Positions 1 to 27,926 of a stretch of 64,000 nucleotides of DNA are shown here, piece by piece. Position 1 is the stretch's first letter, and every line of letters starts with the position of its first letter. Source of the DNA: Malacoraja senta (Eukaryota). The translations under genes were made by a program, and so were the position numbers. The stretch is from the NCBI GenBank assembly GCA_038087875.1, contig CM075995.1, positions 4,838,001 through 4,902,000 on the forward strand. Reading direction: 5' to 3'. Under the pieces are notes generated by a model. It was given only the letters and a program-made list of their open reading frames with translations. It made no database searches and was not told where the DNA came from.

Positions 1-487
1 GAGAGGTTGCTCCACAATGATATACTCCAAAGGAGGTAGTTATCAGCGCGGGTCTCCTCGGGGGCCCACGGCAGCGGCATCTGTTCCAGGGCTGCACAAT
101 GTCTCCCTCTCTGAGGAGGGGAGCATTCGGGGTCAGTTTCAGTCTGACTCAGAGCAAAAATCCTGATATAGGTCCGTGGGAGGGGCCGTGTCAGCGCAGG
201 TATCCTCAGGAGCCTGCGGCAGCACCTGTTTTCAGGGCTGTCTATGAATCTCCCTCTCTGTGGAGGGGAGTGCGAGGAAATACTCACAAGCGAAGGGGTT
301 ACTGCCGGAAGAATTGGTTCCAGCCGTTGGCAGAAAACCCAGAAGGGGCCAGAGTTCCCCTCACGCTACAAGTGCCGGCAGTGAACAGCGCTATCAGGGG
401 TGACATTGGAGGGGGCATGAAATCCAGGAAATGAAACCTAGCCGCCGAATCTTCTCTTCAGGTAAGACTTATCCAACAGGTATACCT

Positions 488-3400
488 GGATGAGGAAGCA
501 AAAGCTGTCGGACTGATCAAGGGACCGACGACGAACAAAGCTTCATCGTATCGGCGCCGACACACCCCACGCCTCATCGGCAGTAAGCAGTTCACTGAAG
601 CTGGTGGCAGCTTGAAAGCTGGGCAGAGGTCTTTCAGGCCAAGGTCCAAGCTGGTCTCAGGAAATATGGAATCCACATACACTACCAGTCCTACTCTCCA
701 ATCAAGGACGGGAATAGAACCCACATCAGGGGCCTTTGGGCTTACCATAAGACCACCGGTAACCATGGAGGTAGGTTGGTCTGGTTCTTCCCAAACATGA
801 GGTATGTGGACCATTTACAAGTTGGTAATATTTACACTTGTTTTTGTACAAATGACAATGATAACATGAGATTCCGATCCGTTTATAAACTAAAATGATA
901 ACATGTGATTGGTTTATTATTGCACAGTATTCAAGGGTACCAAGCATGGCTTGGAATTGGGGCCAGAGTTGTCTTTCGAGGCAGGCTCAGTATTACGGCC
1001 AGGATTGCCTTCCGAGACAGGCTCAGGAATTTGGCCAGAGTTGTCATTCGAGGCAGGCACGGAATTATGGCAGGCGTGGCCTGTTCATTGTGAAAGATGG
1101 AGGATGTCGGTTCATAATTGATTTAACTCGCATGTGCAACATAGACTTTTCAGTGTATGGAACTTCGTTACTGTCTAACAACTGATTTCCTTAGGATCTT
1201 TATGGCATGCATCTATCTCAAAGATGCATACTATTTAGGTCCCATTCACAGGGATCACCGGAGACATTTGAAATTTATCTGGATGGGGCAATGATAACAG
1301 TTAATGCATTACAAAATGGGCTAACTTCAGCTCCCAGGTCAACTACCAAATTACTAAACCGGTGCTTGGACTGCTCAGAGCTCAAAAACACTTGTTATGG
1401 CTTAACTGGATGATATTCTAAACGCTGTATTTTGCTAAAATCAACTGTTTCAGCCGCAACTACATTTGAGAAATTGGGGTTCCTCAACCATCCAGTTAAA
1501 TTTAAGTTGATACCAACTAGAGTTATTGATTATTCGGATTTACCTTTAACTATTAATTTATCTGTGACTCCGCCCTGGGGCAAGAGATTGGAATCAATAG
1601 AAGCCTGTATGAAGCAGCCTTCTATTCCTCAAGTGTAATTGGCAATATAGCAGCTGTGTTTCAGCTGTGCAATTGGGCCTTTGCATTATCAGAACTTACA
1701 ACGTGCAAAGTAGTAACCTCTCAAGTGCCATATAGGTCATTGTTAACAGACCTATGCTATTACCAGCTGAAGCTACCAACGTCACAATGGTGGACAAACA
1801 ATATTCAGCATTGCTCCAGTAGTTTTGGTCAGTAATTCTTCAGTTATATTACAAACTGATGCTAGTGCTCAAAGATGGAAAATTACGAATGCCATCTCTA
1901 GTTACGGAGGCGGATGGGATTTGCATGAATTACCAATTCTTCAGTTATTGGTATCAACTACCTATAGACACTAGGTGCATACTATGGGTTAAAGGGTTAT
2001 TATGCGAATATGCATAACCTGCATGCTCAGTTCCAAGTTGATACACTGTGGTGGTGGCATATGTTAGTCACATGGGTGCAATCAAATCAAAGTATACTGT
2101 CATAATTTACACAACCTCATTTGGCGCTGGTGTATCATCACGTAAAATCAATGACAACACAGAATGGATGTTGGATCACAAAGTATTTTATGACATTATG
2201 GCTCGATGGAACACCGAATATCGATATGTTTGCATCCAGGCTAATTCACCGGTTGCAAAAACATGTGGCATCACAGTGGCGAGAGATACATTCTCGCTAC
2301 ACAGGGGAGGAATGTTCTTTTATGTCTTTTCTCCATTTTGCGTCATGAGTCGGGTCTTGCAATAAATTCAGCAAGATCCCGCTTCAGGTTTTTCGTACTA
2401 TCTGACTGGCCTATGCAGCCATGGTTCCCGCTAATGTTGGGAATAATAATAGAACTTTATATGGGTATTCTAATAAAACTTTGCTGGTTCAGCCTGGGAT
2501 TCGGGGAACCAGCCTCTGCATGATTAAATCAATTCAATGCCTTGCAGACTCTGAGTAGACTGCTCCTGCGGCTCAGGTTGTCAGACCGATCCATGTATGT
2601 GCTCACTGCAGAGTGCAGGGATAGCACCAAAAAAGCAGTACATTTCCTCTTCAGGAGATGGGAAGCGTTTTGTTTAAATGTTATGTTACATATAATACGG
2701 CACGGATACTGACGTCTTAGAGTTCATTTTCAAATGGGTCCTTGACAATAAATTAAGTTATTGTCGCATTAACTGTGCCCAACGTGCTTTCTCATCATAT
2801 TTGCTGCAGTGAGCAGGACCCGCTCTCGGGTCTCACCCTCTGATGTCCAGTTTATTAAGGATATCTTTAACACAAGTTCTCCCAGGCCCAAGTACATGGG
2901 ATATTGACACTGTGTTAACACTACTTCACCAGGGGGCTCCAGCTATATCCTTATCTTTGGCTCGGCTCTCATAAGGTAGTTATCCCCATGGCGCTGTTCT
3001 CAGCGCAACGGGTCCAGTCATTACATAAATTGTGACTGGACAGGATGGTTACACCTGCTAATAATAAAATATTTCATGTTTACGATTTAGTTAAGCAGGG
3101 CAGCCCAGGGGTGTCAGGTCTCAAACAAGTTCTCATGGCATACCCCATGCACCTTCGGTTATGTGTGGTCACACATTTACAACATTACGTCAAGGTCACC
3201 TAGAGCCTTAGAGGCTCTGAAACTAGCTATGTTTGTTAGTTACAAAAAAACCTCATAAGAAGGTATCAGTTCAGACCATCTCCAGGTGGTTAAAACGGGG
3301 TTTTGGCTTATGCAGGAGTAGATACTAATTTTCTAATCTCACTCCACCAGGGCTTTCTACAACATCAGCAGCAAGGGTTATGTACGATCCTCTGGATCAC

Positions 3401-4027
3401 ACCCTAGCGACTGCAGGATGGTCTAACGAACGAGTTTTCCAAACATTTTATGATAACCCATTGCCAGACCAGGGGTATTTGCCAACTCTATTTTAGGCTC
3501 TATTTTATAGTTTCCCCCCAGATGAGAGGGGTTACTATTATTATTATTTGTTCATTTATCAGCATCAGCATGTTTTAATCTATGTCATGTCTGTATGCAT
3601 TATGAATGTTTCCCTTATCTGTGGTCAACTGATGCAGTTGTGTTTGTGTGGACTCGTTTTCCATGGCATGAAATCACAGAGCTTTGAAATCTTCACGTAG
3701 TCACTCACGTGACTCCGAAGTAAAATAATAAGATTAAACGAGAACTTACCAGTTTGAAGTTTGATCTTTATTTTATGAGGAGTTACGATGAGCGATTACG
3801 TGCCCTCCGCTCCCAACCCTCGTATCATAAAGGTAATCTGGTAGTTCTAGTCTTCTCTAATCTTACTATGTTCAGTTCACCAATTGTTATCTGTGATTTC
3901 ACACCGCTGCTTTGAAGATTGACGCGCATGCGGGCTGACGGCCTTCTTCACGTAATCGCTCATCGTAACTCCTCATAAAATAAAGATCAAACTTCAAACT
4001 GGTAAATTCTCGTTTAATCTTACTATT
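488..4027 (+). repeat. 3,540-bp direct repeat, copy 1 (partner 10312-13851), flanking the L1
   Basis: Constant offset of 9824 bp; ORF-track translations of the two copies are identical. The only difference I spotted is 2575 A vs 12399 G. Confidence 0.95.
953..1075 (+). repeat. Degenerate 36-bp tandem repeat (3 units plus a partial unit) inside DIRS A; duplicated at 10777-10899
   Basis: Units 953-988, 989-1024 and 1025-1060 (e.g. GGAATTGGGGCCAGAGTTGTCTTTCGAGGCAGGCTC); reads as GQSCLSRQAQ/GQDCLPRQAQ/GQSCHSRQAR. Confidence 0.8.
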
Positions 4028-4456
4028 TTTTTTTTTTTTTTTTTTTTTAATTTTTATTTTTTAATTTTTATTTATTAGAAGTACATTACATCACAGCCAC
4101 ATACATTAATACTCGTCATTTATATCTTCTTACAATTAATGTACTCCCTTTATTTATTTTTTTACACTAAAGAAAGAAAAGATTGAAAGAGAGAAGAAAG
4201 TGAAGGAAAAAGTGCAAGTGTAGAAAAGTGTAGAAAATGTAACAACAAAAAAGGACGAAGACCCTATGAGAGCGAAATTAAAAACAAAAAGAAAAAGAGT
4301 TAAGAAATAGGCCCTAAGAAAAGAAAAGAGAAAGAGAAAAAAAGAAAAACAAATGTTTTTTTTTGAGCATCACGTAAATAGGACATACCAACTCTTCAAC
4401 TATCATCCCCCCTTACCCGACCTCAATTTTTTATTTTTTTAAAGTACTTTTGCACC

Positions 4457-7400
4457 CTATGTTTGTAATAATTCTATAAATGCAGACCACGTCAGGTGGA
4501 AGTGATCTGGTTTACCTGCTAGGAGGAGTCTTATCTCTTCAAGGTGTAGTGTTTCAAACATATTTGAAATCCACATATTTATAGTTGGTATTGGAGCCTT
4601 CTTCCAAAATTTTAGAATTAGCTTTTTTCCAGTTATTAACCCATAATCCATTAATTTCTTTTGAAACACATTTAGTTCTGGATCATCTTCCGTTATTCCG
4701 AAGATAATCCATTCTGCTTTGGGTATCAGTCTTGTTTTAAATAACTTTGTAAAGATTTCAAAAATTTCATTCCAAAATTTTTGAATTTTTGTACAGAAGA
4801 CAAATGAGTGCGCTATAGTTGCTTCTTGGGATTGACATTTATCACAAATAGATGATACGTTTGGGAAAATTTTATGAATTTTAGTTTTCGAATAATATAA
4901 TCTATGTAAAATTTTAAATTGTATTAAAGTGTGTCTTACATTAATCGAGCATTTATGTACTTTTAATAAGTATTCATTCCAACTTTCCTTTGAAATTTTA
5001 ATAGCTAACTCTTGTTCCCAGTCTCTTCTGATACCCTCCGTAGATGGTATTTGTACATTTAAGATAATATTGTACAAATATGATATTAAGTTTGCTGATT
5101 CCGCTTTTATCTGCATTGCCTCGTCCAGTACATCTGCTGGGTTATTATGATGATCTTTTATATATTTTTTCAAATAGTCGCATATTTGAAAGTATTTAAA
5201 ATATTGATTATTTCCGAGTTTATATTTTATTTGTAATTGTTGAAATGAAAGTAATTTTCCAGTTTCATACAAGTCACCAAGCGTTTTAATTCCTAGTCTA
5301 TCCCATTGTGTATAAGCTTTATCTATAATAGAAGGACTAAACGAAGGGTTATTGACTATAGGTAATAAAAGTGATAAGTTTCTTAATTTTAAATTTTGTT
5401 TTATTTGTTTCCAAATACGGATTGTACTATGAATAATTGGGTTCTTATTATAGTTTATGTTATTCAATTTCATTGGAGAGAGGAGGATCGCTCCAATGTT
5501 TCTAGAGGAGCAATCCTCTTTCTCCATTACAATCCAGTCTACTTGCTGGGCGGAGTTATCCATCAGTTGAATCATGTTTTTAATATTTACTGACCAATAA
5601 TAATACATAAAATTGGGTAGTGCTAGACCCCCCAATACTTTAGATTTATTCAGATGGGTTTTTTGTATTCTATGTGATTTATAGTCCCATATAAAATTAG
5701 TGATATCTGAGTCGAGTTTTTTAAAAAACTTCTTAGGTAAGTATATAGGAATTGATTGAAATAGGTATAAAATTTGTGGTAAAAAGATCATTTTTATTGC
5801 GTTTATTCGGCCTATTAAAGACATCGGAAGCGTTTTCCAGAATTTAATTAATGTATTCAGTTTATTAAGTAGGGGGTCAAAATTTGCCCTGAGCATACCT
5901 TGATATGCTCTGGTAATTTCGATTCCCAAATATTTAAATTTTTCTGTAGCTATTTTAAAAGGGAATTTTAAAAGATGTGTTGAATCTTTCGGTTTTATTG
6001 ACATAATTTCACTTTTATTCCAATTTATTCTATATCCAGAAAAAGATCCGAAGTCTTCAATTAAATTTAATATATTTGGTATAGTGATTTGAGGTTTTGT
6101 AATATACAATAATATATCATCCGCGTATAAAGATATTTTATTATATGAGTCTTTAGTATTATATCCATGAATATCAGGGTGTATTCTAATTTTTTCTGCT
6201 AGCGGTTCAATAATGAGAGCAAACAGCTGTGGTGATAATGAGCATCCTTGTCTATTTCCCCTTGATAGTTGAAATTTCGAGGATAATATGTTATTAGTAA
6301 GTATTCTAGCTGTAGGTTTGTTATATAGTAACTTAATCCATAAAATAAAATTCTCTCCCAGTTGAAATTTTTGTAATACTTTATCCATATAATTCCATTC
6401 TACTTGATCAAATGCTTTTTCAGCATCCAGCGAAATAATTGATAATTCTTGATCTTCAGATTTGTGTGAGTGCATTATGTTGAGTAGACGTCTCATATTA
6501 TTAGAAGAGTATCTCTTAGGGATAAACCCTGTCTGATCTGGGTTTATTAATTTACTAATGTATTTACTTAATCTTCTGGCTAATGTTTTCGCTAATATTT
6601 TTTGATCTGTGTTTAACAATGCTATAGCTCTATATGAGCCAGGTTCTTCTAAATCCTTATTTTTCTTAGGTATTAATGTAATCGTTGATTCCGCTAATGT
6701 ATCAGGTAGTATTCGTTTTTTAAAAGCGTATTGGTACATTTTTTGTAATCTTGGTATTATTTTATCATAAAAGTTTTTATAAAATTCATTAGTAAATCCA
6801 TCAGGGCCTGGTGTTTTTCCATTTTTTAGTGAGTTTATTGTATCTTCTAATTCCTTAATTGAGATTTGTGCACCCAGTTCCTCTTGTTCCTTCAGCTCTA
6901 ACTTTGGAAGATTACAGGTATCCAAGAACTTTGTGATATTATTGGAATCAATTATCGTTTTAGATGTATACAAATTCTCGTAAAATTGCGCAAATCTTTT
7001 ATTAATATCCTTCGGTGTTGTTAATAATTCCCCTTTATCTGATTTGATCTTTGGTATAGTATGTTCCTTTTCTCGTTTTTTTAGCTGGCGAGCCAAAAGT
7101 TTATGCGGTTTATCCCCAAATTCAAAGTGCTCTTGTTTTGTAATTTGAAAAAGTCTTATAAGTTTGGCAGATAATAATTTATTTAATTTAAATTTTAAAA
7201 TTATTATTTTATTATGTTTATCTATTGATGGATCTTTAGCATTATCTATATCCATTTGTCTAATAAGTTCTTCTAACTGTCTTTGTTCATTCTTATTCTT
7301 TTTATTTTGAAAAGCTTGATATGAAATTATAATACCCCTAATGTATGCTTTAAAAGATTCCCAAAGTAAAGTAGGCGATATATCTGAAGTATCATTTGTT

Positions 7401-8248
7401 TGAAAAAAGACCTCCATTTGTTCTTTTAAATATATACTCGCTTGTGGATCTTTTAAAATTTGAGAGTTAAATCTCCAGAATGAATTATTCTTAGACAATC
7501 CTTCCAGTTTTAAAAAGAAAGTTAGTGGAGAATGGTCTGAAATTGAATTTGTATGATATATTGCATTAGATGTTTGGGGGATTAATTTTGTATCCAGCAG
7601 AAAGTAGTCTATACGTGAGTATGTCTTATGTACCATTGAGTAAAATGAATATTCCCTGCCAGTTGGATTCACAATTCTCCAAACATCTGCTATATTAGTG
7701 TTGTTTATGTAGGTATTGAGGAGTTCCCCAGTTTTCGATTTCATATTCCCTCTCTGTTTTTGACTTGATTTATCTAAGTACGGGTCTAAAACACAGTTAA
7801 AGTCTCCGCCTATTATAACATTTTGATAGTTTGACTTTGCAATTATATTGAAGATTTTATTGAAAAAGTGGGGGTTATCAAAGTTAGGGGCATATATATT
7901 TACCAAAGTAAGTGGAGTGTCATGGATTTCTCCATTAACTATTAGGTATCTCCCTTCTATATCTGTTATAATATTCTTTGCTTTAAATGGTATACCTTTT
8001 CTTATGATAATTGACGTGCCTCTAGATTTTGAAGTGAATGAAGAGTGGTATGTTTGACCTATCCATTTCGCCCTCAGCCTAACTTGGTCCTGAGGTTTTA
8101 GGTGTGTTTCTTGTAGGAAGGTAATGTCAGAATTATACATTTTTAGCTGAGCTAATATCTTACCCCTTTTGATAGGTTCATTAATACCTCTTATATTCCA
8201 ACTACAAAATGAGACTCCTCCTAGGTTCTTTTGTGTGGTGTCATGCAT
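4457..8248 (-). CDS. L1 ORF2p: APE endonuclease + reverse transcriptase + C-terminal CCHC (1263 aa, uninterrupted)
   Basis: EN motifs SWNIRG, LQETH, GGDFN, SRIDY, SDH; RT motifs PGPDG, SLDAEKAFD, RQGCSLSP, LYADD, KYLG; C-terminal CDKC...H...C. Confidence 0.97.
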   Translation of the reverse strand: MHDTTQKNLGGVSFCSWNIRGINEPIKRGKILAQLKMYNSDITFLQETHLKPQDQVRLRAKWIGQTYHSSFTSKSRGTSIIIRKGIPFKAKNIITDIEGRYLIVNGEIHDTPLTLVNIYAPNFDNPHFFNKIFNIIAKSNYQNVIIGGDFNCVLDPYLDKSSQKQRGNMKSKTGELLNTYINNTNIADVWRIVNPTGREYSFYSMVHKTYSRIDYFLLDTKLIPQTSNAIYHTNSISDHSPLTFFLKLEGLSKNNSFWRFNSQILKDPQASIYLKEQMEVFFQTNDTSDISPTLLWESFKAYIRGIIISYQAFQNKKNKNEQRQLEELIRQMDIDNAKDPSIDKHNKIIILKFKLNKLLSAKLIRLFQITKQEHFEFGDKPHKLLARQLKKREKEHTIPKIKSDKGELLTTPKDINKRFAQFYENLYTSKTIIDSNNITKFLDTCNLPKLELKEQEELGAQISIKELEDTINSLKNGKTPGPDGFTNEFYKNFYDKIIPRLQKMYQYAFKKRILPDTLAESTITLIPKKNKDLEEPGSYRAIALLNTDQKILAKTLARRLSKYISKLINPDQTGFIPKRYSSNNMRRLLNIMHSHKSEDQELSIISLDAEKAFDQVEWNYMDKVLQKFQLGENFILWIKLLYNKPTARILTNNILSSKFQLSRGNRQGCSLSPQLFALIIEPLAEKIRIHPDIHGYNTKDSYNKISLYADDILLYITKPQITIPNILNLIEDFGSFSGYRINWNKSEIMSIKPKDSTHLLKFPFKIATEKFKYLGIEITRAYQGMLRANFDPLLNKLNTLIKFWKTLPMSLIGRINAIKMIFLPQILYLFQSIPIYLPKKFFKKLDSDITNFIWDYKSHRIQKTHLNKSKVLGGLALPNFMYYYWSVNIKNMIQLMDNSAQQVDWIVMEKEDCSSRNIGAILLSPMKLNNINYNKNPIIHSTIRIWKQIKQNLKLRNLSLLLPIVNNPSFSPSIIDKAYTQWDRLGIKTLGDLYETGKLLSFQQLQIKYKLGNNQYFKYFQICDYLKKYIKDHHNNPADVLDEAMQIKAESANLISYLYNIILNVQIPSTEGIRRDWEQELAIKISKESWNEYLLKVHKCSINVRHTLIQFKILHRLYYSKTKIHKIFPNVSSICDKCQSQEATIAHSFVFCTKIQKFWNEIFEIFTKLFKTRLIPKAEWIIFGITEDDPELNVFQKKLMDYGLITGKKLILKFWKKAPIPTINMWISNMFETLHLEEIRLLLAGKPDHFHLTWSAFIELLQT

Positions 8249-9053
8249 TTTGAATAATTATAGTACCTTTGAATCTTGTGGTGCGTCCATATCCCAGGTC
8301 TTTAGGTATTGGGGGAGTTTTTGAATTATTAACTTTTGTTGGTATGTCCATATTATTCTTATCACTAAACACAAAACACAAACAAGTGATTTTATGTAAT
8401 AAAAAAAAAACTAAAAAAGTGAGGCTACAGTGTCTATAGTCGGCACTGTAGCAAGTGACCCACCTGTAGGTGGGAAAAAACCTTATTTTGACTTCCATTG
8501 CGTTGTTGCTCAACTCGCTCCGCTCTCTTAGTTAATCATAACATATTAAAATATTAAAACGAGGCCTCACATTCATATATATAATACAATTTTACCCTGA
8601 TATTTCCTTATAACATATATATATATCAGAGTTTAATTATTAAACCAATATTTTTGATTTCAATAAGAATCAGCTGTTGGTTGAAGGGGTTAACGAGACG
8701 TGCTCCTGGACATAAGCCAGGAGCTCGTTTCTCATCCCCTCCTCCCGCTTATAGACAAGGTTACAATTTATTAAAAATTCATATTAGTATGTTAGTTCAT
8801 TATTTTTTTGTTTTTTTTGTTAGTATTCTAATCTAACCTGCATAACTTTTAAAGTTGTTAATAGGATAAGTTCTTACAATTGGTTATAACATTTTAATCA
8901 ATAAGCAATTATTTTCTAATTCATATCCCGTTATAAAGTTGTTTACACGTTTTGAACAGAAAATGTCCTTGCTTCAACATTCCGGAGATAACAATGTAAC
9001 TATCCCCAGACAAAACATAGCTGAGAATTATTCGGATCTGCCAAAGCTCCCTT

Positions 9054-10125
9054 TTATTTCTGTCTTTCAACAATCGTTTGGGCATATTTGAAAGCGTCTT
9101 CAGGCTTAACAAATGACTTTTCAAGACCATTAAAAGAAATACGCATTTTAGCGGGATAAAAAACCCCGAATCTGACCCCTTCTCTCCCTCTTAAAAGATC
9201 TTTAACCTTATCAAATTTGTTTCTTTTTTGCACAATTTCATGTGGGTAGTCCCTGAATATCTTAATAGTGTCTTTGTCCAGCCGTAATTGTACACCATAT
9301 TTGATTTTTGTCATAACATATTCCAGTTCTGCAGTGTCTCGAAATTTCACTATAATATGTCGTGGATAAGCTTTTCCCGCATCAAATCTTTTTCCAAATC
9401 TTGGGACACGATGAGCCACTTCGATTTTCGGTTCCTTGGGAAGATTCAACAGTTGTTTCAACAAGCCCATGGCAAATTCACGTACCTGTTCCCCTTCTGC
9501 CCCCTCTGAAACACCAAGAATCCTCAGATTCTGGCGTCTAGAACGAGCTTCCAGGTCCAGGCATTTGAATGAGACTTTCTCTAATTGAGTCCCCATTTGT
9601 AGTGATGCTTGTTCGTTTTCTCGCCTCATTTGCTCATGTTCTTGCCTCAATTTCGCCATGTCTTCAACCAGTCGTGCCGTATTTTTCTCCAATTCCGTAA
9701 TTGTCTGCATACTTGCAGCTACTGTTTCAAGTACAGCCGTGAACTTATCCGTAGTAATTACATCCATCTTATCCATTTTCTCTGATAGTCCATCTTTCAC
9801 CTCATCAATTCGTTTATTCATAGTGTCCAGTAAATCCGTCATATTCTTCTGGTTACCAGCATTTAAATCCTTCATCATCTTCTGCATTCCTTCCATCATT
9901 TTTGCCGAATTTTCCTTCATTTCCTTCTTATCTTCCACCCTATTATCCGAGATCTCATCTTTCAAATTTTTCATTGATTTTTTCAAGTCATCAAAGTCTT
10001 TTCTTAGATCTTGTATCCATTTCTGCAGCCACTTCAGAGACTTCAGAGGTAACTTCAGTTTCGAACTGTTTCGACAGTTTATTCACAGCTCTCTGAGGGC
10101 TCACAGCTGGAGTCAATTTACTCAT
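9054..10125 (-). CDS. L1 ORF1p (coiled coil + RRM/CTD), apparently with a 1-bp frameshift at the T4 run 9999-10002
   Basis: Main frame 9054-9986 contains a coiled coil, LEARSRRQNLRILGVSEG, AHRV and IFRDY. ATG 10125 opens MSKLTPAV...MDTRSKK, which joins DFDDLKKSMK if one A is removed (about 356 aa). Confidence 0.85.
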
Positions 10126-10311
10126 TTAAAGGGCTTCAAACCACCGTTTAAAACATCGCGTTTAACGATGACGTCATCAGCGCGGTAACCAGAAGCTCCG
10201 GTAAGGTTTTTAAAAACAATCCCGATTTTCGGACCCGTTTTACACGATAAATCGTGAAGTTTTTCGGGAGAGGAGCTGGGTGCACGTCTGTTAGTCTAAC
10301 ATGACGCCACC
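10126..10311 (-). promoter_or_regulatory. L1 5'UTR / putative internal promoter with a palindromic CRE-type site
   Basis: CpG-rich stretch upstream of the ORF1 ATG; ATGACGTCAT at 10168-10177. Promoter role is inferred from known L1 biology. Confidence 0.5.
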
Positions 10312-13300
10312 GGATGAGGAAGCAAAAGCTGTCGGACTGATCAAGGGACCGACGACGAACAAAGCTTCATCGTATCGGCGCCGACACACCCCACGCCTCA
10401 TCGGCAGTAAGCAGTTCACTGAAGCTGGTGGCAGCTTGAAAGCTGGGCAGAGGTCTTTCAGGCCAAGGTCCAAGCTGGTCTCAGGAAATATGGAATCCAC
10501 ATACACTACCAGTCCTACTCTCCAATCAAGGACGGGAATAGAACCCACATCAGGGGCCTTTGGGCTTACCATAAGACCACCGGTAACCATGGAGGTAGGT
10601 TGGTCTGGTTCTTCCCAAACATGAGGTATGTGGACCATTTACAAGTTGGTAATATTTACACTTGTTTTTGTACAAATGACAATGATAACATGAGATTCCG
10701 ATCCGTTTATAAACTAAAATGATAACATGTGATTGGTTTATTATTGCACAGTATTCAAGGGTACCAAGCATGGCTTGGAATTGGGGCCAGAGTTGTCTTT
10801 CGAGGCAGGCTCAGTATTACGGCCAGGATTGCCTTCCGAGACAGGCTCAGGAATTTGGCCAGAGTTGTCATTCGAGGCAGGCACGGAATTATGGCAGGCG
10901 TGGCCTGTTCATTGTGAAAGATGGAGGATGTCGGTTCATAATTGATTTAACTCGCATGTGCAACATAGACTTTTCAGTGTATGGAACTTCGTTACTGTCT
11001 AACAACTGATTTCCTTAGGATCTTTATGGCATGCATCTATCTCAAAGATGCATACTATTTAGGTCCCATTCACAGGGATCACCGGAGACATTTGAAATTT
11101 ATCTGGATGGGGCAATGATAACAGTTAATGCATTACAAAATGGGCTAACTTCAGCTCCCAGGTCAACTACCAAATTACTAAACCGGTGCTTGGACTGCTC
11201 AGAGCTCAAAAACACTTGTTATGGCTTAACTGGATGATATTCTAAACGCTGTATTTTGCTAAAATCAACTGTTTCAGCCGCAACTACATTTGAGAAATTG
11301 GGGTTCCTCAACCATCCAGTTAAATTTAAGTTGATACCAACTAGAGTTATTGATTATTCGGATTTACCTTTAACTATTAATTTATCTGTGACTCCGCCCT
11401 GGGGCAAGAGATTGGAATCAATAGAAGCCTGTATGAAGCAGCCTTCTATTCCTCAAGTGTAATTGGCAATATAGCAGCTGTGTTTCAGCTGTGCAATTGG
11501 GCCTTTGCATTATCAGAACTTACAACGTGCAAAGTAGTAACCTCTCAAGTGCCATATAGGTCATTGTTAACAGACCTATGCTATTACCAGCTGAAGCTAC
11601 CAACGTCACAATGGTGGACAAACAATATTCAGCATTGCTCCAGTAGTTTTGGTCAGTAATTCTTCAGTTATATTACAAACTGATGCTAGTGCTCAAAGAT
11701 GGAAAATTACGAATGCCATCTCTAGTTACGGAGGCGGATGGGATTTGCATGAATTACCAATTCTTCAGTTATTGGTATCAACTACCTATAGACACTAGGT
11801 GCATACTATGGGTTAAAGGGTTATTATGCGAATATGCATAACCTGCATGCTCAGTTCCAAGTTGATACACTGTGGTGGTGGCATATGTTAGTCACATGGG
11901 TGCAATCAAATCAAAGTATACTGTCATAATTTACACAACCTCATTTGGCGCTGGTGTATCATCACGTAAAATCAATGACAACACAGAATGGATGTTGGAT
12001 CACAAAGTATTTTATGACATTATGGCTCGATGGAACACCGAATATCGATATGTTTGCATCCAGGCTAATTCACCGGTTGCAAAAACATGTGGCATCACAG
12101 TGGCGAGAGATACATTCTCGCTACACAGGGGAGGAATGTTCTTTTATGTCTTTTCTCCATTTTGCGTCATGAGTCGGGTCTTGCAATAAATTCAGCAAGA
12201 TCCCGCTTCAGGTTTTTCGTACTATCTGACTGGCCTATGCAGCCATGGTTCCCGCTAATGTTGGGAATAATAATAGAACTTTATATGGGTATTCTAATAA
12301 AACTTTGCTGGTTCAGCCTGGGATTCGGGGAACCAGCCTCTGCATGATTAAATCAATTCAATGCCTTGCAGACTCTGAGTAGACTGCTCCTGCGGCTCGG
12401 GTTGTCAGACCGATCCATGTATGTGCTCACTGCAGAGTGCAGGGATAGCACCAAAAAAGCAGTACATTTCCTCTTCAGGAGATGGGAAGCGTTTTGTTTA
12501 AATGTTATGTTACATATAATACGGCACGGATACTGACGTCTTAGAGTTCATTTTCAAATGGGTCCTTGACAATAAATTAAGTTATTGTCGCATTAACTGT
12601 GCCCAACGTGCTTTCTCATCATATTTGCTGCAGTGAGCAGGACCCGCTCTCGGGTCTCACCCTCTGATGTCCAGTTTATTAAGGATATCTTTAACACAAG
12701 TTCTCCCAGGCCCAAGTACATGGGATATTGACACTGTGTTAACACTACTTCACCAGGGGGCTCCAGCTATATCCTTATCTTTGGCTCGGCTCTCATAAGG
12801 TAGTTATCCCCATGGCGCTGTTCTCAGCGCAACGGGTCCAGTCATTACATAAATTGTGACTGGACAGGATGGTTACACCTGCTAATAATAAAATATTTCA
12901 TGTTTACGATTTAGTTAAGCAGGGCAGCCCAGGGGTGTCAGGTCTCAAACAAGTTCTCATGGCATACCCCATGCACCTTCGGTTATGTGTGGTCACACAT
13001 TTACAACATTACGTCAAGGTCACCTAGAGCCTTAGAGGCTCTGAAACTAGCTATGTTTGTTAGTTACAAAAAAACCTCATAAGAAGGTATCAGTTCAGAC
13101 CATCTCCAGGTGGTTAAAACGGGGTTTTGGCTTATGCAGGAGTAGATACTAATTTTCTAATCTCACTCCACCAGGGCTTTCTACAACATCAGCAGCAAGG
13201 GTTATGTACGATCCTCTGGATCACACCCTAGCGACTGCAGGATGGTCTAACGAACGAGTTTTCCAAACATTTTATGATAACCCATTGCCAGACCAGGGGT

Positions 13301-13851
13301 ATTTGCCAACTCTATTTTAGGCTCTATTTTATAGTTTCCCCCCAGATGAGAGGGGTTACTATTATTATTATTTGTTCATTTATCAGCATCAGCATGTTTT
13401 AATCTATGTCATGTCTGTATGCATTATGAATGTTTCCCTTATCTGTGGTCAACTGATGCAGTTGTGTTTGTGTGGACTCGTTTTCCATGGCATGAAATCA
13501 CAGAGCTTTGAAATCTTCACGTAGTCACTCACGTGACTCCGAAGTAAAATAATAAGATTAAACGAGAACTTACCAGTTTGAAGTTTGATCTTTATTTTAT
13601 GAGGAGTTACGATGAGCGATTACGTGCCCTCCGCTCCCAACCCTCGTATCATAAAGGTAATCTGGTAGTTCTAGTCTTCTCTAATCTTACTATGTTCAGT
13701 TCACCAATTGTTATCTGTGATTTCACACCGCTGCTTTGAAGATTGACGCGCATGCGGGCTGACGGCCTTCTTCACGTAATCGCTCATCGTAACTCCTCAT
13801 AAAATAAAGATCAAACTTCAAACTGGTAAATTCTCGTTTAATCTTACTATT
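10312..13851 (+). mobile_element. Copy A2 of the decayed DIRS 3' portion (duplicate of 488-4027), with ICR and right terminus, followed by the original flank
   Basis: Near-identical to 488-4027; ends ...CTTACTATT at 13851, then unique sequence ATATGCCAG. Confidence 0.93.
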
Positions 13852-14142
13852 ATATGCCAGAATGCAGAAGTTGCAGGTTGCAGTCACTGGTCTGGAACAA
13901 ACACGACTTGTTTGTGGTTCCATGGGGCCTCTTGGGAAGGTGCTATCAAAGTGCAATTGACAGTAAACCTGGAACTCTGTACGCAATAGCATTGACGTAG
14001 GATTCTCACCGTGGAGACTGCAGCATCTTAACAGGGCAGTCCACAACATCTAGATGCCCAATGAAAGGAACAAAATGCCAGCCTTGCCCCCAGCATCAAT
14101 AAAGTGCAGGATGTTGTTGTGAGCTTTCGATCTCCCCCCTTG

Positions 14143-14437
14143 TTTTAGTTTTAGAGATAGAGGGTGGAAACAGGCCCTTCGTCCCACCGAGTCCTCGCCG
14201 ACCAGCAATCACCCATACACTAGTTCTATCCTACACACGAGGGACAATTTACAGAGGCCAATTGACCTACAAACCTGCACGTCGTTGGAATGTGGGAGGA
14301 AACCGGAGCATCCGGTGAAATCCCATGCGGTCACTGGGAGAAAGTACAAACTCCGTACGGACAACTTTAGTCAGGATTGAACCCGGGTCTCTGGCGCTGT
14401 GAGGCAGCAACTCGACCGCTGCGGCACTGAGCTGCCC
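14143..14437 (-). mobile_element. tRNA-derived V-SINE (HE1-like)
   Basis: Reverse complement shows a tRNA-like head with A/B boxes, the central V-like core (TTTCCTCCCACA) and a CTCTAAAACTAAA tail. Confidence 0.8.
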
Positions 14438-15210
14438 ATTCTCAATTGGCTAAATATTAGCACTTGATTAAGGCAGCTCAACGCCAGCCACATTATCATG
14501 CCTTACAGCAGCAAAACTTTATTGGTTCCTGCACTTACAAATACGTTGATGCTTACCAGTCAGTGTTCAGGCAAAGTAGAATATGAGAATAATCTAGCAA
14601 GAAACTTAGAAATGCATTGTAAAAGCTTCTGTAGATATTTGCAATGGAAATAAATGAGCAGAAGCTGAAGTGGCTTCTTACAGGTTAGGATTGGGGAATT
14701 ACATTGGGGAACAAAGAAATTAAACCAAATATCTTGGTTTTTATGCAAGAAGACACCGGAAACCTGTGGGAATAATGAAGAACAACAGGTCGAGAGTGAA
14801 TGTGGAACTGAAAGATATTCGCCTTTGTTTAAAAGTACTGGAGTAATTAATGAGATGGAAAGGCAATCACTGTCAGGACCAGATAGAAACATAGAACATA
14901 GGTGCAGGAGTAGGCCCTTCGGCCCTTCGAGCCAGCAGCGCCATTCAATATGATCATGGCTGATCATCCAAAATCAGTACCCCGTTCCTGCTTTGTCCCC
15001 ATCTCCCTTGATTCCTCTAGCCCCAAGAGCTAAATCTAACTCTCTGACCCAGGTGACCTCTATCCAAAGGTTTTGAAGGTGGTAACACTGGAAATTAGTT
15101 GTTGTCATCCAAATGTCCAAATATTCTGACATTGGTTCCCACTGTTTTAAGAAAAAAAAGGGCAAATGGTAAAAATGGGGAATTCAGCTATTAGGTCGAT
15201 ACCAGTTGTA

Positions 15211-15862
15211 GTTTATAGTTTCGTTTAGAGATACAGCGCGGAAACAGGCCCCTCGGGCCCACCAAGTCCGCATCGACCAGCGATCCCCACACACTTACAC
15301 TATCCGACACACATTTGGGACAATTTACATTTGTACCATGCCAATGAACCTACAAACCTGTACGTCTTTGGAGTGTGGGAGGAAAACGGAGCTCCCGGAG
15401 AAAACATACGCAGGTCACGGTGAGAACGTACAAACTCCGTACAGACAACGCCCGTAGTCAGGATTGAACCTGGGTCTCTGGCATTGTGAGGCAGCACCTC
15501 TACCGCTGTGCTGCCCACTGTGCTGCTGCTTGATGCACTTGCTGGTCAAACCCCTGTCTACAAATCAACATCAGCCTTATTCATGCCGAGGTAGATGTGA
15601 CCATTTCAGTGTGTCCCACCGAGTCCACGCCGACCAACAGTCTAATTCTATCCTACATACTAGGGACAATTTACAGAAGCCAATTCACCTCCAAACACTC
15701 ACGTCTTTGAAGTGTGGGAGGAAACCAGAGCACTTTTGAGAGAGCCCACGCAGACACAGAGAGAACGTAAAACTCCGTGCAGACTGCACCCGTAGTCAGG
15801 ATTGAACCTGGGTCTCTGGTGATTTAAGGCAGCAACTCTACCGTTGCGCCACCGTGCTGCCC
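15211..15862 (-). mobile_element. Two V-SINE copies (about 15211-15516 and 15610-15862)
   Basis: Same head/core/tail sequence as the other copies. Confidence 0.75.
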
Positions 15863-16911: not shown

Positions 16912-17157
16912 CTCAACTACGCTTGCTCTGTGTGGTACGGATGGTCACACAGGATGCTGAAGTTGCTGAAGTAAAACCCCACAAATGGCCAGGTGACACC
17001 ACCCCTCCACTCAGTATGCTAATGAAGTCCTTGAAAATTGAAATCCTTTTGAAATCAATGGTTTAACGATAGCTTCTGCTTAAGCTCATATTCTGTTGTT
17101 GAAAAGCAAAATCCCTTGTTAATTAAATAATTAATTAGACAAAGATATTACAGAGAA

Positions 17158-22539: not shown

Positions 22540-22748
22540 AGATAAGTGATAGGAGCAGAATTAGGCCATTCGGCCCATCAAGTGTACTCCGCCATTCAAT
22601 CATGGCGGATCTATCTCTCCCTCCTAACCCCATTCTCCTGCCTTCTCCACATAACCCCTGACTCCGTACTAATCAAGAATCTATCTATCTATCTCTGCCT
22701 TAAAAATATCCATTGACCTGGCCTCCACAGCCTTCTGTGGCAATGAAT
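22540..22748 (-). mobile_element. CR1-type 3' fragment interrupted by the DIRS; continues at 27604-27835
   Basis: CCTTCTGTGGCAATGAAT + TTCACAGATTCACCACCCTCTGAC rejoins to match the intact copy at 48470-48510. Confidence 0.85.
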
Positions 22749-23255
22749 AGTAAGATTAAACGAGAACTTACCAAGTTTGAAGTTTGATCTTTATTTTATG
22801 AGGAGTTACGATGAGGGATTACGTGAAGAAGCCCGCCAGCCCGCATGCGCATCAACCTTCAAAGCAGCGGTGTGAAATCACAGACAAACAGTGTTGAACT
22901 GAACATAGTAAAATTCGAGACTAGAACTACCAGCTGACCTTTATGAGAGAGGGTTGGGAGCGGAGGGCATGTAATCCCTCATCGTAACTCCTCATAAAAT
23001 AAAGATCAAACTTCAAACTTGTTAAGTTCTCGTTTAATCTTACTATTTTACTTCGGAGTCACGTGAGTGACTACGTGAAGATTTCAAAGCTCTGTGATTT
23101 CATGCCGTGGCCACGAGTCCATGCGTCACACACACATCAGTTGACCAAGGATGAGTGAAAATTAATAATGCATTCAGACATGACATAGATTTAAACATGC
23201 TGATGCTTTAATGTGCAAATGAAAATAATAGTGACCCCTCTCATCCAGGGGGAAA

Positions 23256-24209
23256 CTATAAAACAGAACTTAAAATGGAATTGGCAAATACCCCCGGTCT
23301 GGTAATGGGTTTGTTATAAAATGTTTGGAAAGTTTGTTCGTTTGACCATCCTGCAGCCGCTAGGATGTGGTCCAGTGGAACGTCCATTACCCTCGCTGCT
23401 GACGTTGTTGCAGCCCTGGTGCAGTGAGATTTGAAAACGTCAGTGTCCACTCCTGCACAAGTCAGAACCCATTTTAACCACCTGGAGATGGTCTGTACTG
23501 ATACCTTCTTATGAGTTTTTTTGTAAATAACGAACATAGTTAATTCAGAGCCTCTGAGGCTCTTGGTGACCTTGATGTACTGTTGTAAAAGTGTAACCAC
23601 ACACAACGGAAGGTCCATGGGGTATGCCATGAAAACTAGTTTGAGCCCTGACACCCCTGGTCTGCTCTGCTTGATTAAATCATAAACATAAAATGTTATA
23701 TTATTTGCAGATGTAACCATCCTGTCCAGTCGCAGCTTATGCAACGACTGGACCCGTTGCGCTGAAACCAGCGCCATGAGCATGACCACTTTGTAAGTGA
23801 GTTTGGGCAAGGACAGGGATGTAGCTGGAGCCCACCGGCGAAGCAGCGTCAGCACCACGCTCACATCCCATATCTCCAAGTACGTGGGCCTGGGGAGATT
23901 TGAGTTGAAGATACCCTTCATGAACCTGGATATCAAAGGGTGAGACCCGACAGAGTGGTGTCCCGATCCCAGCAATAAGTATGACGGTAAGGCACTTCTG
24001 GCACTATTTATGGCACTATAACTCAGTCTCTCATCAAAATATAGTGTTGAGAGGAATTCCAACACATCCGTTATGCGTGCCGTGTCATACGATATGTTGG
24101 ACTGTAAACAGAACACCTCCCATTTCTTGATATGAGAGATGTACTGTTTCTTGGTACTATCCCTCCAGCCCACCGTACGATCTGACAGTCCGAGCCCCAG
24201 GAACTGCAA
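23256..24209 (-). CDS. DIRS tyrosine recombinase (317-aa open frame; no ATG at its 5' end)
   Basis: Catalytic set AQR, HCTR, AAGW, FQTFY; N-terminal core-binding region SYSAINSARSAL. Confidence 0.88.
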   Translation of the reverse strand: MQFLGLGLSDRTVGWRDSTKKQYISHIKKWEVFCLQSNISYDTARITDVLEFLSTLYFDERLSYSAINSARSALPSYLLLGSGHHSVGSHPLISRFMKGIFNSNLPRPTYLEIWDVSVVLTLLRRWAPATSLSLPKLTYKVVMLMALVSAQRVQSLHKLRLDRMVTSANNITFYVYDLIKQSRPGVSGLKLVFMAYPMDLPLCVVTLLQQYIKVTKSLRGSELTMFVIYKKTHKKVSVQTISRWLKWVLTCAGVDTDVFKSHCTRAATTSAARVMDVPLDHILAAAGWSNEQTFQTFYNKPITRPGVFANSILSSVL

Positions 24210-26161
24210 ACCAACAAATTGATTCGGTCATGTAGTGGATGGTTCTCCCCAGTCACAGGATGAACCAGCAGATTTCTGCATTTGGGGACAGCCATAAAAG
24301 GCTGTGTTATCATTCCCAGAAAGAGTGGGAACCATGGCTGTGTAGGCCAGTCAGGCACTACCAAAACGCCTGAGGCGGAGTCTTGCTGGATCTTAAGCAA
24401 GCACCGACTGATGAGGCAAAATGGGGGGAATGCATAAAAAAACATTCCACCCCAGTGTAGCGAGAATGCATCTACCGCCACTGCCCCTGGGTCTGGTTCC
24501 CATGCAACATACTTTGGTAACTGGTGATTGAGTCTGGATGCAAACAAATCAATATTTGTATGCCATACCGAGCGACAATGTCGTTAAACACTTCATGATT
24601 CAACATCCATTCTGTGTTGTCATTGAATTTCCATGACCTGGTGTCCGCCACCATGTTGAATCTACCTGGTAAGTAGATAGCTAAAACCCAAATGTTTCTT
24701 GTAATACACCAGTGCCAAATAAGGTTAGCCAATTTATCACAGGATACTGACTTGATTCCACCCATGTGATTAATGTATGCCACCGCTGTAGTGTTGTCAA
24801 TCTGAAGTTGAACACGCAAATGATGCATATTGCCACAATAAGCCTTCAGCCCATAGAGTGCTCCCAGCAACTCTAAGTAGTTAATATCATGTGACTGAAG
24901 AATTTATGACTCATGCACATTCCATCTGCCACCGCAGCTAGAGATGGTATTATTAGCTCCCCATCCTAGAGCACTAGCATCAGTTTGTAATATAACTGAA
25001 GGTTTATCGACCAATATTTTACTGGAGCAATGCCGAATATTTGTCATCCACCATTGTAACTCAGCAATGGCTTCAGCTGGCAACCGCATGGGTCTACTGA
25101 AGTGACCTGCATGGAATTTGAGTGCCTGCTTCTTTGCACGTTGTAAATTTTTATAATGCAAAGGCCCAAACTGCAGCTGGAAAAGCAGCCACTAATTTGC
25201 CAATTATACTAGCTACATGTCGAATAGAAGGTTGCTCCTTAACAATGAGATTGTTACAGGCTTCTATTAATTCTAATCTCTTGCCCCAAGGCAGAGTCAC
25301 AGACATGTGAATCGAGTTAATGGTATATCCCAAATAATCAATAACTCTAGATGGTATCAACTTGGATTTAACTGGATGGGTGAGAAACCCCAATCTCTCA
25401 AACATGAGTTTAGTAGCTGAAACAGATAATTTAGTTAATTTCAGAGTTTTCCCTATGATTAGGATATCATCCAAATAAGCCATCACAATATGATTCTGAG
25501 CCCGGAGTAGCCCCAGCACCGGTTTCAATAATGTTGTAAATAATCTGGGGGCTGAAGTTAACCTATTAGGCAATGCTTTAAACTGCCACAGTTGCCCCAT
25601 CCAGCTAAACTTCAAATATCTCCGGTGATCCCAGTGAATGGGTACCGAATAGTATGCATCTTTGAGATCGATGCATGCCATATAACATCCTGTGGAAACC
25701 AGTTGTTTGGCAGTAACAAAGTTTTCCATTTTGAAATGTTTATACTGCACAAAGGAGTTAAGTCGAGTCAAATCAAGGATGATTCGGCATCCTCCATCCT
25801 TCTTTTGCCTTGTGAATATATTAGACACAAATTGGTGAGGTTCATGACACGACTTCTCAATTACCCCTTTTTTGTATAATACTTCAATTTCAGCTTGTAC
25901 ATCCAAACATTCCTGTTGTGAAAAAACAAATGTCCGGTTCGGTGTATGCTGTGTGGGTGGAAACAAATTGGGAAGGAATTCGATTTGGAACCCTTGTATA
26001 CTGTGCAGTATAAACGGATCTGATGTTATCCAACGGCATTCATTCAAAAACAAGTGCAATCTCCCACCAACTTGTAACTGATCCATACACCCTATGTTCC
26101 GGAAAGAACCAGACCCACCTACCTCCATGGTTACCAGTGGATGAATGGTTTTTATTTCCAC
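24071..26161 (-). pseudogene. DIRS pol (RT - RNase H - Dam-like methyltransferase domain) broken by about 3 frameshifts
   Basis: RT: IDLKDAY, LTSAPRLF, YLDD. RNase H: TDAS, IDNTT, ADTRS. MT: FASRLN...FYAFPPF...VVPDWPTQPWFP. Spread over ORFs 25151-26161, 24904-25161, 24472-24870 and 24071-24547. Confidence 0.9.
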
Positions 26162-27386
26162 CCCCGAGGTTTTGGGGGTAGGACTGATGGAGTGCGCAAA
26201 CTGCGCATCTTTGACAAGGGCCGGCTTGGGCCTTGGCCTAAAAAAGACCTCTGCCCAGAGTGTTCGGCCTTCGAGCTGCCACCAGTTTCAGCGAACCGTT
26301 TGTTGTTGACGGGAGCGTAGGGGTGCTGCCGCCGGAATGATGAAGCTTTGCTAGTTGATGGGACTTTCATTAGCCCGACCGCTTTCGCTTCGTCGTCCAG
26401 CTCCCTGACCTGCTTCGGCAGATCTTCTCCGAACAAAAAATTCGGCGGCTGTACGTTGCTGGCCTTGCACAGTCCCGCGAAATTGGGGTTCAGTGTAGGT
26501 CGGATGGCATTTTTGCGTAAACAGTTGATTTCAAAATGTGCGTTGCACGTTAATGCCAGGGCATCCTGTTGCACATCAGACAGGGTACCCTCATCCACCG
26601 ACCTGGCAAAGGCCGTGATGCCTGAGGCCAGCAACTTTAGGATTTTCTGGAGCTTCACCTCCTGGGCTCTGATGCCCCTTCCGATGTAACCCCAGATGGA
26701 GTTGTTAACAGCCGGCATGTTTAACGAAGCACAGTTAGCAGGTGTGTGGTACTTCATAGAAGTTTCTGCCATTGCCTGTTCTTGGAGCTGGTGTAATGCC
26801 AGGTAATTGATGCTCGTAGCCAATTCCTCATCCAGTGGTTCCCCTGTTTGCGATGGAATTGCAAATTTCGATGCTATAGTAGGCACATCTGCTTCACGCC
26901 CTTCGTGCCTCATGGTATGCTCCCCGGCTATACCTCCGAACTCCGAGTCAGACCAAAACTGACCCCGAATGCTCCCCTCCTCACAGAGGGAGACATTGTG
27001 CAGCCCTGAACCAGGTGCCGCTGCCGCGGGCCCCCGAGGAGACCCGCGCTGATATAACTCAGTTCGTTGGAGCATATCATGATGGAGCATCCTCTCCATC
27101 AGGTGCTCCATCCGGGATAAACGTCCGAAGACGCTATCCATTGTAGGAGGGGAACCTCCTGGCCCGACTCGTCCGAGTCAACAGGCCTTACAGACTTTCT
27201 TTTGGCTTTCCCTCCTAGCGGGGTTGCCAAGGTGCTCTCGACTGGCACCAAGTCTGAAGCCGCTGGCCGCACCGCCAGCAACTCAGAAGGCGAAATCGAC
27301 GGCCGCCCGCTACCCGCACTCCCGCTGTCTTCCGTAGCTGCTTTCCCCGTAGCCCGTCTGGACTTCACCTTGGACATTTTCTCCAT
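26152..27386 (-). CDS. DIRS gag-like ORF1 (probable frameshift near 27140)
   Basis: 329-aa frame 26152-27141 (PANC..L..PAVNNSIW, FLFGEDL) preceded by the MEKMSKVK... frame starting at ATG 27386. Confidence 0.75.
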
Positions 27387-27926
27387 AGCAGTCCGTACTT
27401 GAAGTTCTACAATCAAGAATTACCGAACAAAAAGAAATGACCTCAAAATAAGTTTTAAACACTTACCTGTAGGATTTTTAAACTTACTGCTGGAGGAGCG
27501 ACGCGCCTGCCAGCCAGTCGTTGCGCAATGCGTTAGACGTAATTGACGCGCATGAGGGCTGGCGGGCTTCTTCACGTAGTCACACGTGAATCTGAAGTAA
27601 AATTTCACAGATTCACCACCCTCTGACTAAAGAAATTCCTCCTTATCTCCTTCCTAAAGGAACATCCTTTCATTCCGAGGCTGTGAGCTCTAGTCCTAGA
27701 CTCCCACTAGTGGAAACATCCTCTCCACACCCACTCTATCCAAACCTTTCACTATTCGGTAAGTTTCAATGAGGTTCCCCCTCATCTTTCTAAACTCCAG
27801 CGAGTACAGGCCCAGTGCCGTCAAACGCTCATCATGATTGCAGCATCTATTTATTGCAGCGCAAAACACCATTTACAGTTGAAATACTGAGATATTACTT
27901 TTTTTAAAAACCAAGGGCATATTTTA

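Follow-up and report, generated by a model that had tools for sequence, protein, structure and literature searches.

Results

An L1-type element sits between two direct repeats of DIRS-like sequence. We analysed a window of 64,000 nucleotides from Malacoraja senta (GCA_038087875.1, contig CM075995.1, positions 4,838,001 to 4,902,000); all coordinates below are those of the window. Near its left end the assembly shows a target region present twice in direct orientation, with one minus-strand L1 immediately between the copies and none at the outer ends (Table 1). Self-comparison of the assembled window returned the repeats as 488-4027 and 10312-13851, which agrees with the coordinates of the initial annotation. 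On alignment they differ at 1 of 3,540 positions (2575 A versus 12399 G), and neither edge can be extended, even by one base, on either side. The next-longest repeat in the window is 79.7% alike over 1.95 kb; nothing else comes close. Copy 1 passes directly into a T run at 4026-4048, whose first two letters (4026-4027) still belong to the ATT that ends the DIRS, and the L1 5' end directly adjoins the start of copy 2. Upstream of copy 1 lies more DIRS sequence (positions 1-154 match a third DIRS copy at 87.8%) and the flank beyond copy 2 is non-DIRS sequence, again as first described. Unlike the canonical TPRT insertion, with its target-site duplication (TSD) of 5-25 bp, this L1 has no separate short TSD: its flanking repeat is the 3,540-bp unit. 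Elsewhere in the window the assembly holds a 200-N gap (42906-43105).

Table 1. Features of the window bearing on the duplication
Feature	Position	Strand	Details
Decayed DIRS1-like element, upstream part	1..487	+	Unduplicated; from alignment to the third copy
Repeat copy 1	488..4027	+	3' part (3,540 bp) of the decayed DIRS, with remains of RT and tyrosine recombinase, ICR, right terminus
ICR of copy 1	3724..3802	+	Reverse complement of 3949-4027 (77/79 alike)
DIRS right terminus of copy 1	3949..4027	+	Last trinucleotide ATT (4025-4027); putative primed nick at the final base
L1 poly(A) tail	4028..4076	-	21 A at 4028-4048, then an A-rich stretch and AATAAA (4071-4076)
L1 ORF2	4457..8257	-	Open frame of 1266 aa between stops; endonuclease, reverse transcriptase, zinc finger
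L1 ORF1	9054..10125	-	ATG at 10125; after a frameshift close to the four-T run 9999-10002 the long frame reaches 9054
L1 5' untranslated region	10126..10311	-	GG at start (10311); the family's exact first base may differ
Repeat copy 2	10312..13851	+	Same DIRS part, joined to the original flank; X15 contig 13829-14174, 0 differences
ICR of copy 2	13548-13626	+	
Right terminus of copy 2	13773-13851	+	
Third DIRS1-like copy	22746..27603	-	Near-complete, 75-79% alike internally, ATT at both ends

Domain order and the names of its matches mark the central element as a probable L1-type non-LTR retrotransposon. ORF2 matches PF03372 (E 9e-17) and PF00078 (E 1.5e-39), with a C-terminal zinc finger under its cut-off (PF13966, E 5e-4); its full-length relatives are 36-54% alike, the named ones being LINE-1 reverse transcriptase-like. 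A poly(A) tail follows the polyadenylation signal. ORF1 has four homologs and a match to the L1 RNA-binding domain PF02994 that is under cut-off (E 0.0025). BLASTP of the 44-aa ORF1 start against P0001 gave no match; local alignment of the same peptide to P0001 scored 61 (0 of 5,000 shuffles, versus 4,763 of 5,000 for the other frame). The L1 is thus full-length in structure, but its ORF1 is frameshifted as assembled. The earlier description of a full-length young L1 therefore stands for the structure and for ORF2, not for ORF1. This one-base homopolymer frameshift could be a consensus error; one X16 contig has a loose end at 10001, in the same region. Relatives of the L1 5' half at 90% identity or more are abundant in two organism-E runs and almost absent from two related organisms, and hence we regard the family as lineage-restricted. 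The remaining 57.7 kb of the window hold no second ORF2 relative, and a metagenome scan for sister L1 copies returned one locus with 22 residues matching, which we set aside.

The duplicated sequence has the features of a decayed DIRS1-like tyrosine-recombinase retrotransposon. Elements of this group carry an ICR complementary to both termini, and the trinucleotide found at each end recurs at the circle junction. We used the third copy, which lies outside the duplication and retains PF00078 (E 2.5e-16) and PF00589 (E 1.8e-6), as the reference for termini and ancestral letters. ATT stands at both of its ends and at the circle junction predicted from the ICR. Against this reference the duplicated copy is 70-91% alike per 500 bp, the termini and ICR being much better kept than the interior (87-96% versus 70-78%). 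The longest stop-free stretch on the coding strand is 137 aa in copy 1 versus 323-378 aa in the third copy. The decayed element continues past the left edge of the window, and the alignment, with its 504-base overhang, would place the left terminus some 500 bp further.

Both copies descend from one locus. We compared contigs of four runs with the window, among them the same-species run X15; they bear on species identity and on the abundance of the repeats. At private DIRS sites, where nearly all contigs of the family differ from the window, copies 1 and 2 share the window letter at all 13 listed, while the third copy carries the family letter at 12. (These 13 sites are the DIRS rows among 40 listed; there are 607 further rows besides.) Since the private changes are common to both copies, we conclude that both descend from one decayed locus and that the duplication was local and recent. 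At 6 of the 13 sites no X15 contig has the window letter, which we put down to collapsing: in high-copy repeats, rare variants are easily lost from contigs. We take these sites as evidence neither way. The third copy has G at the column of the single difference. Hence it is copy 1 that carries a derived CpG-to-CpA change, as had been proposed.

Perhaps the DIRS element itself drove the event? The same decayed DIRS, mobilised in trans, could have re-inserted at the ATT beside the L1 tail, or a DIRS-L1-DIRS unit could move as a composite. The breakpoint is the exact DIRS terminus with its trinucleotide, termini and ICR are the best-kept parts, and for DIRS-1 the literature describes an RT active in trans and frequent insertion into copies of itself. 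However, the donor would have to be this very locus, because the private decay common to both copies is absent from the family, L1 priming would have had to occur in the purine-rich sequence of the left breakpoint, and we know of no second locus with this junction. We consider a DIRS-driven origin very unlikely. Mobilisation of the composite by DIRS proteins, which the initial annotation had envisaged, fares no better: the element is decayed, as its short stop-free stretches indicate; on the model of PMC7192593 a transcript would probably meet copy 1's own ICR and right end first; and direct repeats of such length should tend to be lost by recombination (PMC5223499).

The junctions fit a single L1 insertion. 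The 3' junction presents a relaxed endonuclease site, TATT/A, at the tail. It fits a rule of three T in four and is not among the three canonical motifs (TTTT/A, TTTT/G, TTTC/A), a consensus that is that of human L1 and may not be that of this family. The 5' junction has 0 nt of exact microhomology; the resemblance seen there earlier is a gapped ACC(T)/GGATG alignment. The microhomology-primed second strand that had been suggested thus lacks support, and we rejected it. The 5' joins of full-length insertions reportedly show little or no microhomology. Against the single-insertion reading, full-length insertions were, in cultured cells, the class with the tightest TSDs (12-18 bp).

An ordinary tandem duplication could have come first, with the L1 entering its junction later, exactly and with no TSD. 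One sequence alone leaves room for this order of events, but it requires two rare events at one base, and the bare junction would have read TATT/GG, which is probably less favourable than TATT/A, the site as it stood before insertion. We regard this order as extremely improbable.

The primed nick would fall precisely on the DIRS right terminus, at the foot of the 79-bp stem that the ICR hairpin would form, and is 1 of 63 similar sites in the unit, a post hoc count with n=1. The initial annotation noted that the DIRS right terminus was kept and missed this base-exact coincidence. Mismatch-guided cutting, for which PMC12809410 (in excerpt) describes a W-G mismatch two bases upstream, was rejected; the hairpin mismatches here are A-C and C-A. 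We found no report of target-specific, Tx1-like behaviour at DIRS ends in the literature listing consulted.

At the left breakpoint there is no strict endonuclease-like site 0-30 nt inside, and a relaxed site, TGTC/GG, lies 22 nt inside. A minus-strand TTTT/G site 12 nt inside predicts a boundary at 500, not 488, and we regard it as chance. The lack of a strict site is weak evidence, since 25% of random positions have a strict site 5-25 nt downstream (79% for a relaxed one).

Two earlier insertions or an assembly artefact are unlikely. We wondered if the structure could derive from two insertions. In an unequal crossover of the Bar type, two L1s of the same orientation, one per breakpoint and on different homologs, would recombine to leave one hybrid L1 between the duplicates. 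The geometry would be exactly that seen here, as with roo at Drosophila Bar (PMC13322080, in excerpt); the L1 family is abundant in this species, and the single difference between the copies could be allelic. On the other side, we found neither a strict site within 30 nt inside the left breakpoint nor, in the rest of the window, a further ORF2 relative, which together weigh against two independent insertions, and the excerpt of PMC13322080 describes the Drosophila copies as substantially diverged.

The near-identity of the copies also bears on this point. The X15 flank contigs differ from the window at 5 of 1,759 bases, a rate at which two haplotypes of the unit should differ at about 10 positions (range 4.9-10.1), where 1 was seen. 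The Poisson probability of so few is 0.0005-0.045; under the coalescent, the probability of at most one difference is 0.17, or 0.31 when the most divergent contig is set aside, so that this comparison, drawn from 6 listed contigs, carries little weight when coalescent variance is taken into account. We judge the crossover unlikely. The initial annotation had left it unweighed, though its own proposal, one L1 insertion duplicating 3.5 kb, is the best-supported reading.

A mis-join through near-identical L1s, between haplotypes or between paralogous loci, would mean that the unit occurs once per chromosome. The L1 junctions are known from the assembly alone, both components are high-copy repeats, the ORF1 frameshift could be a consensus error, and the assembly has the N gap mentioned above. 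That gap, however, is 29 kb away, and the sole difference between the copies is a CpG transition, typical of real mutation, we infer. The flank and its join to the DIRS end match an independent X15 contig (13829-14174) with 0 differences, although only 23 letters fall on the DIRS side. Both novel junctions must still exist, on separate molecules, and hence an artefact inherits the requirement for two insertions. We doubt that the structure arose in this way.

Discussion

The arrangement as assembled is best explained by a single event, in which an L1 was primed at TATT/A and its other end was joined to DNA 3.5 kb upstream, that is, an insertion-mediated duplication or long TSD; we put its probability at roughly two-thirds (0.68). 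We base this on the exact abutment at both ends, the 1 difference in 3,540, the tail at a T-rich end, the blunt 5' junction and the private decay shared by the copies. ORF2p would have nicked the plus strand at TATT/A (4027/4028, equivalent to 13851/13852 before insertion), and the whole L1 RNA would have been copied from this nick at the DIRS right end. The cDNA end would then have been ligated, with no microhomology, to a break at 487/488. This break may have been on the sister chromatid, or a distant bottom-strand nick may have been followed by strand displacement; fill-in would then copy the 3.5 kb. Both routes would yield an identical product, and we favour the replication-linked sister-chromatid route.

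Such duplications are an already known, rare outcome. L1 TSDs in cultured cells span 5 bp-5.3 kb, the upper limit coming from cells deficient in NER (Servant et al., PMC5223499; Gilbert 2002/2005 and Symer 2002 as cited there). As here, one L1 lies between direct target repeats; 3.5 kb is within that range, a distant second nick was proposed, and the repeats were predicted to recombine and remove the L1. Those were engineered human L1s, mostly in NER-deficient cells, whereas the present L1 is endogenous and full-length, belongs to the assembly of a vertebrate and lies between copies that are already one difference apart. Among 20 human long-read genomes, xTea found 24 insertion-mediated duplications (6 L1 and 18 Alu; PMC8219666). 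These are likewise natural and germline, with the element in the middle and its two sides matching a single region of the reference; our case differs in its non-mammalian host and in that a further retrotransposon is what was duplicated.

Tandem duplications mediated by L1 in tumours and in induced clones (22.6 Mb, PMC7058536; small ones, PMC11702581) share the single L1 at the junction, the endonuclease motif at the 3' end and a sister-chromatid bridging model, but are somatic and mostly far larger, with short truncated inserts in the example. Kilobase-scale TSD-like duplications also flank LINEs of other clades: Dualen-4b in Chlamydomonas (median 900 bp, PMC9977147), where they are a family trait, and ZfL2-2 in DT40 cells (1 of 25 TSDs, at 1,228 bp; PMC2666801). 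At Drosophila Bar, roo lies between 203.5-kb duplicates (PMC13322080), one element between tandem copies with none at the outer ends, as here; that case differs in its diverged copies and in its origin, a crossover between two insertions that were already present on separate chromatids. No closer case was found in the excerpts of 10.1101/522623, 10.1101/2024.08.27.596794 and PMC2718515.

The single-insertion model leaves the exact coincidence of the nick with the DIRS terminus unexplained. Are DIRS right ends structural hot spots for L1 priming? In single-stranded fork DNA the ICR might pair with the terminus as a 79-bp hairpin; a cut at the end of the stem could let L1 prime there, and fork restart upstream would duplicate kilobases. 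We consider this idea speculative and probably wrong.

The structure itself has no function: what it duplicates is dead transposon DNA, and for this reason the locus is of little importance. If the repeats recombined, the L1 would disappear cleanly and scarlessly, so that genomes may under-record such events. If reads confirm the assembly, the locus would be a clean, natural, non-mammalian example of a LINE insertion duplicating kilobases of its target, a process so far studied mostly in cell culture and tumours and one that can copy exons. Enrichment of young L1s at DIRS termini, if true, would tie target choice to the DNA structure of another element; one retrotransposon would then steer the insertions and rearrangements of another across a DIRS-rich vertebrate genome.

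An L1 between two copies of a decayed DIRS element

The initial annotation described a near-perfect 3,540-bp direct repeat with one difference, and alignment bore this out. The two copies, each 3,540 bp long, mismatch only at 2575 (A) versus 12399 (G), and identity ends sharply, with 0 bp of further extension at either edge of the unit. Divergence is 0.028% (95% range, 0.0007 to 0.16%), and the derived letter, 2575 A, is in copy 1. A 6,284-bp minus-strand element fills the space between the copies and has no second copy within the window. This duplication geometry is real in the assembly, which alone shows it.

Positions of the main features in the window
Feature	Position	Strand	Remarks
Small direct repeats in DIRS	43-123/191-270		79% alike
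DIRS repeat, copy 1	488-4027		
Small direct repeats in DIRS	953-999/1026-1071		85% alike
L1 tail	4028-4048	-	21 A, after AATAAA
L1 ORF1-ORF2 spacer	8258-9053		strongly AT-rich
ORF1 frameshift	9999-10002	-	four-T run
DIRS repeat, copy 2	10312-13851		
Copy 2 ICR	13548-13626		
Copy 2 right terminus	13773-13851		
Dispersed repeats, many	14144-63212		300-350 bp; at least 2 families; 76-90% identity; SINE-like
Shared contig ends	16307-16353		
Third DIRS copy	22746-27603	-	
Possible LINE remains	29916-31219	-	frames of 324 and 128 aa
EEPD1 ortholog, large coding exon	38549-39418	+	E 4e-118 to PDB 9yi2_A
Assembly gap	42906-43105		200 N

The duplicated unit corresponds to the 3' portion of a DIRS1-like element. 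The third copy is near-complete: it matches reverse transcriptase (RT) and tyrosine recombinase, has ATT at each end, and keeps long frames (341, 378, and 323 aa), with several breaks across the RT-to-recombinase region. Its internal complementary region (ICR) spans the circle junction via the same ATT as its ends; the DIRS model, as outlined in PMC7192593, requires the ICR to read through the circle junction trinucleotide. A Pfam search of the DIRS gave no gag match, so the "DIRS gag" placed upstream by the initial annotation keeps its label by position only. The duplicated DIRS is 70 to 78% alike to the third copy in its interior and 87 to 96% near the end, with several deletions, and its longest stop-free stretch is 137 aa. 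The small direct repeats inside the decayed DIRS are older local duplications.

Did both copies come from one locus? We scored 13 copy 2 sites among 40 listed differences (607 more lay outside the test). Nearly all family contigs differ from the window letter at these sites, as does the third copy at 12 of the 13, where it carries the family letter. Because copies 1 and 2 share the window-private letter at 13/13 listed sites, we conclude that they derive from one decayed locus. Nothing supports the proposal that DIRS-L1-DIRS moves in one piece, which is improbable: the donor DIRS is decayed, and copy 1 already carries an ICR and a right end. Recombination between such long direct repeats would be expected to remove the L1 (PMC5223499).

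The L1 had been called full length, and it is so in structure. It has a tail and an open ORF2 (1266 aa, with matches to endonuclease, RT, and zinc finger), but ORF1 is frameshifted as assembled. The frameshift may reflect either mutation of the element or an error in the consensus; the run length differs in one contig from sequencing run X16. The ATG at 10125 starts a 44-aa frame that aligns to the N-terminal start of the ORF1 homolog P0001 (score, 61; 0/5,000 shuffles), a likeness that plain BLASTP did not detect, while the first 29 aa of the long ORF1 frame did not align to the P0001 start (4,763/5,000 shuffles). ORF2 relatives are 36 to 54% alike, those with names being teleost LINE-1-like proteins, and the closest named ORF1 relative is a skate protein (39%). 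The mammalian L1 inter-ORF spacer is shorter than the ~800-bp spacer found here.

The duplication lies ~25 kb upstream of the EEPD1 exon. The SINEs of the window are presumably shark HE1-like; together with the relatives of the two ORFs, they make a cartilaginous fish the likely host. The possible LINE remains resemble, by eye, the RT of another LINE.

A single insertion as the probable source of the duplication

The L1 tail abuts the T-rich side of a relaxed endonuclease site, TATT/A. Microhomology had been suggested at the 5' junction; this join is instead blunt, with an exact overlap of 0 nt, and full-length insertions are likewise reported to join with scant or no microhomology (PMC11702581, section 6). 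We propose that in one L1 insertion, the cDNA would have been joined to a DNA end 3,540 bp upstream, either on the sister chromatid (model of PMC7058536) or at a distant nick (PMC5223499). The locus is most likely an L1 insertion-mediated duplication, and we give a probability of roughly two in three to its production by a single L1 insertion event. Counting against a single event, full-length inserts had the tightest target site duplications (TSDs) in cells (PMC11702581).

The initial annotation had likewise favored one insertion for the 3.5-kb duplication. The main rival yields identical geometry: a crossover between two L1s that had inserted earlier into different chromatids, as happened at Bar (PMC13322080). 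Against a crossover, no strict site lies in the first 30 nt inward of the left breakpoint (although a relaxed one is present at +22), no other L1 occurs across the remaining 57.7 kb of the window, and the copies differ at 1 position versus 4.9 to 10.1 expected between haplotypes. Each argument is weak: a strict site is in range at only 25% of random positions, the site rules are those of human L1 and may not apply to this family, and coalescent variance raises the probability of so few haplotype differences to 0.17 to 0.31. We nonetheless consider the crossover improbable. An assembly artefact seems quite unlikely too; a haplotype mis-join requires the same two insertions.

The primed end coincides with the final base of the DIRS element. 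Pairing of the ICR with the terminus gives a 79-bp stem (predicted fold of 13500-13900, -100.7 kcal/mol; 0/100 shuffles as good), whose pairing is first lost at 13852, the base following the nick. Strict sites on the nicked strand number 63 in the unit and 1,001 in the window. Given insertion in this DIRS, the terminus coincidence is about 1 in 60, a figure obtained post hoc from one case. The stem is inherent in DIRS structure, and its end is the terminus by definition; its mismatches did not fit the W-G rule of the human L1 endonuclease. A structural link between the DIRS stem and L1 priming is very doubtful.

Contigs of four sequencing runs

Of 21 runs, all consisting of contigs, four (X1, X15, X16, and X17) were compared over 3960-18300, with 3960-4076 masked. 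Among the rows listed, neither L1 junction appeared. X15 differs from the flank at 5 of 1,759 bases in six listed contigs and, judged by this sequence, comes from the same or a very close species. One X15 contig matches exactly from the end of the DIRS into the flank; 23 of its letters fall within the DIRS, below the 31-letter bridging rule. X15 is possibly the source sample and therefore not independent support. The X1 flank is ~95% alike. Sequences 90% alike to the L1 5' half abound in X15 and X16, but X1 and X17 have almost none, so this L1 family is lineage restricted. Hundreds of contigs from all four runs stop at the same short motif with AT-rich loose letters (shared contig ends in the table), which suggests the end of a high-copy element whose flanks vary.

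Comparison with known duplications

In NER-deficient cells, TSDs spanned 5 bp to 5.3 kb, and in HeLa cells they exceeded 100 bp in ≤10% of events (PMC5223499); ZfL2-2 had one TSD of 1,228 bp (PMC2666801), and Dualen has a median of 900 bp (PMC9977147). Twenty human genomes held 6 L1-mediated and 18 Alu-mediated duplications (PMC8219666), and an L1-mediated duplication in a tumour reached 22.6 Mb (PMC7058536). The TSD range and endonuclease motifs were taken from PMC12016303. Given these published cases, insertion-mediated duplication is a known kind of event, germ lines included, and xTea (PMC8219666) may include kilobase-scale L1 cases, which would lower the novelty further. Our search, mainly of the open literature, found no fish or shark case and, at listing level, no such duplication at a DIRS end. 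The notable aspects of this locus are the size of the duplication, the full-length insert, and the coincidence with the DIRS terminus.
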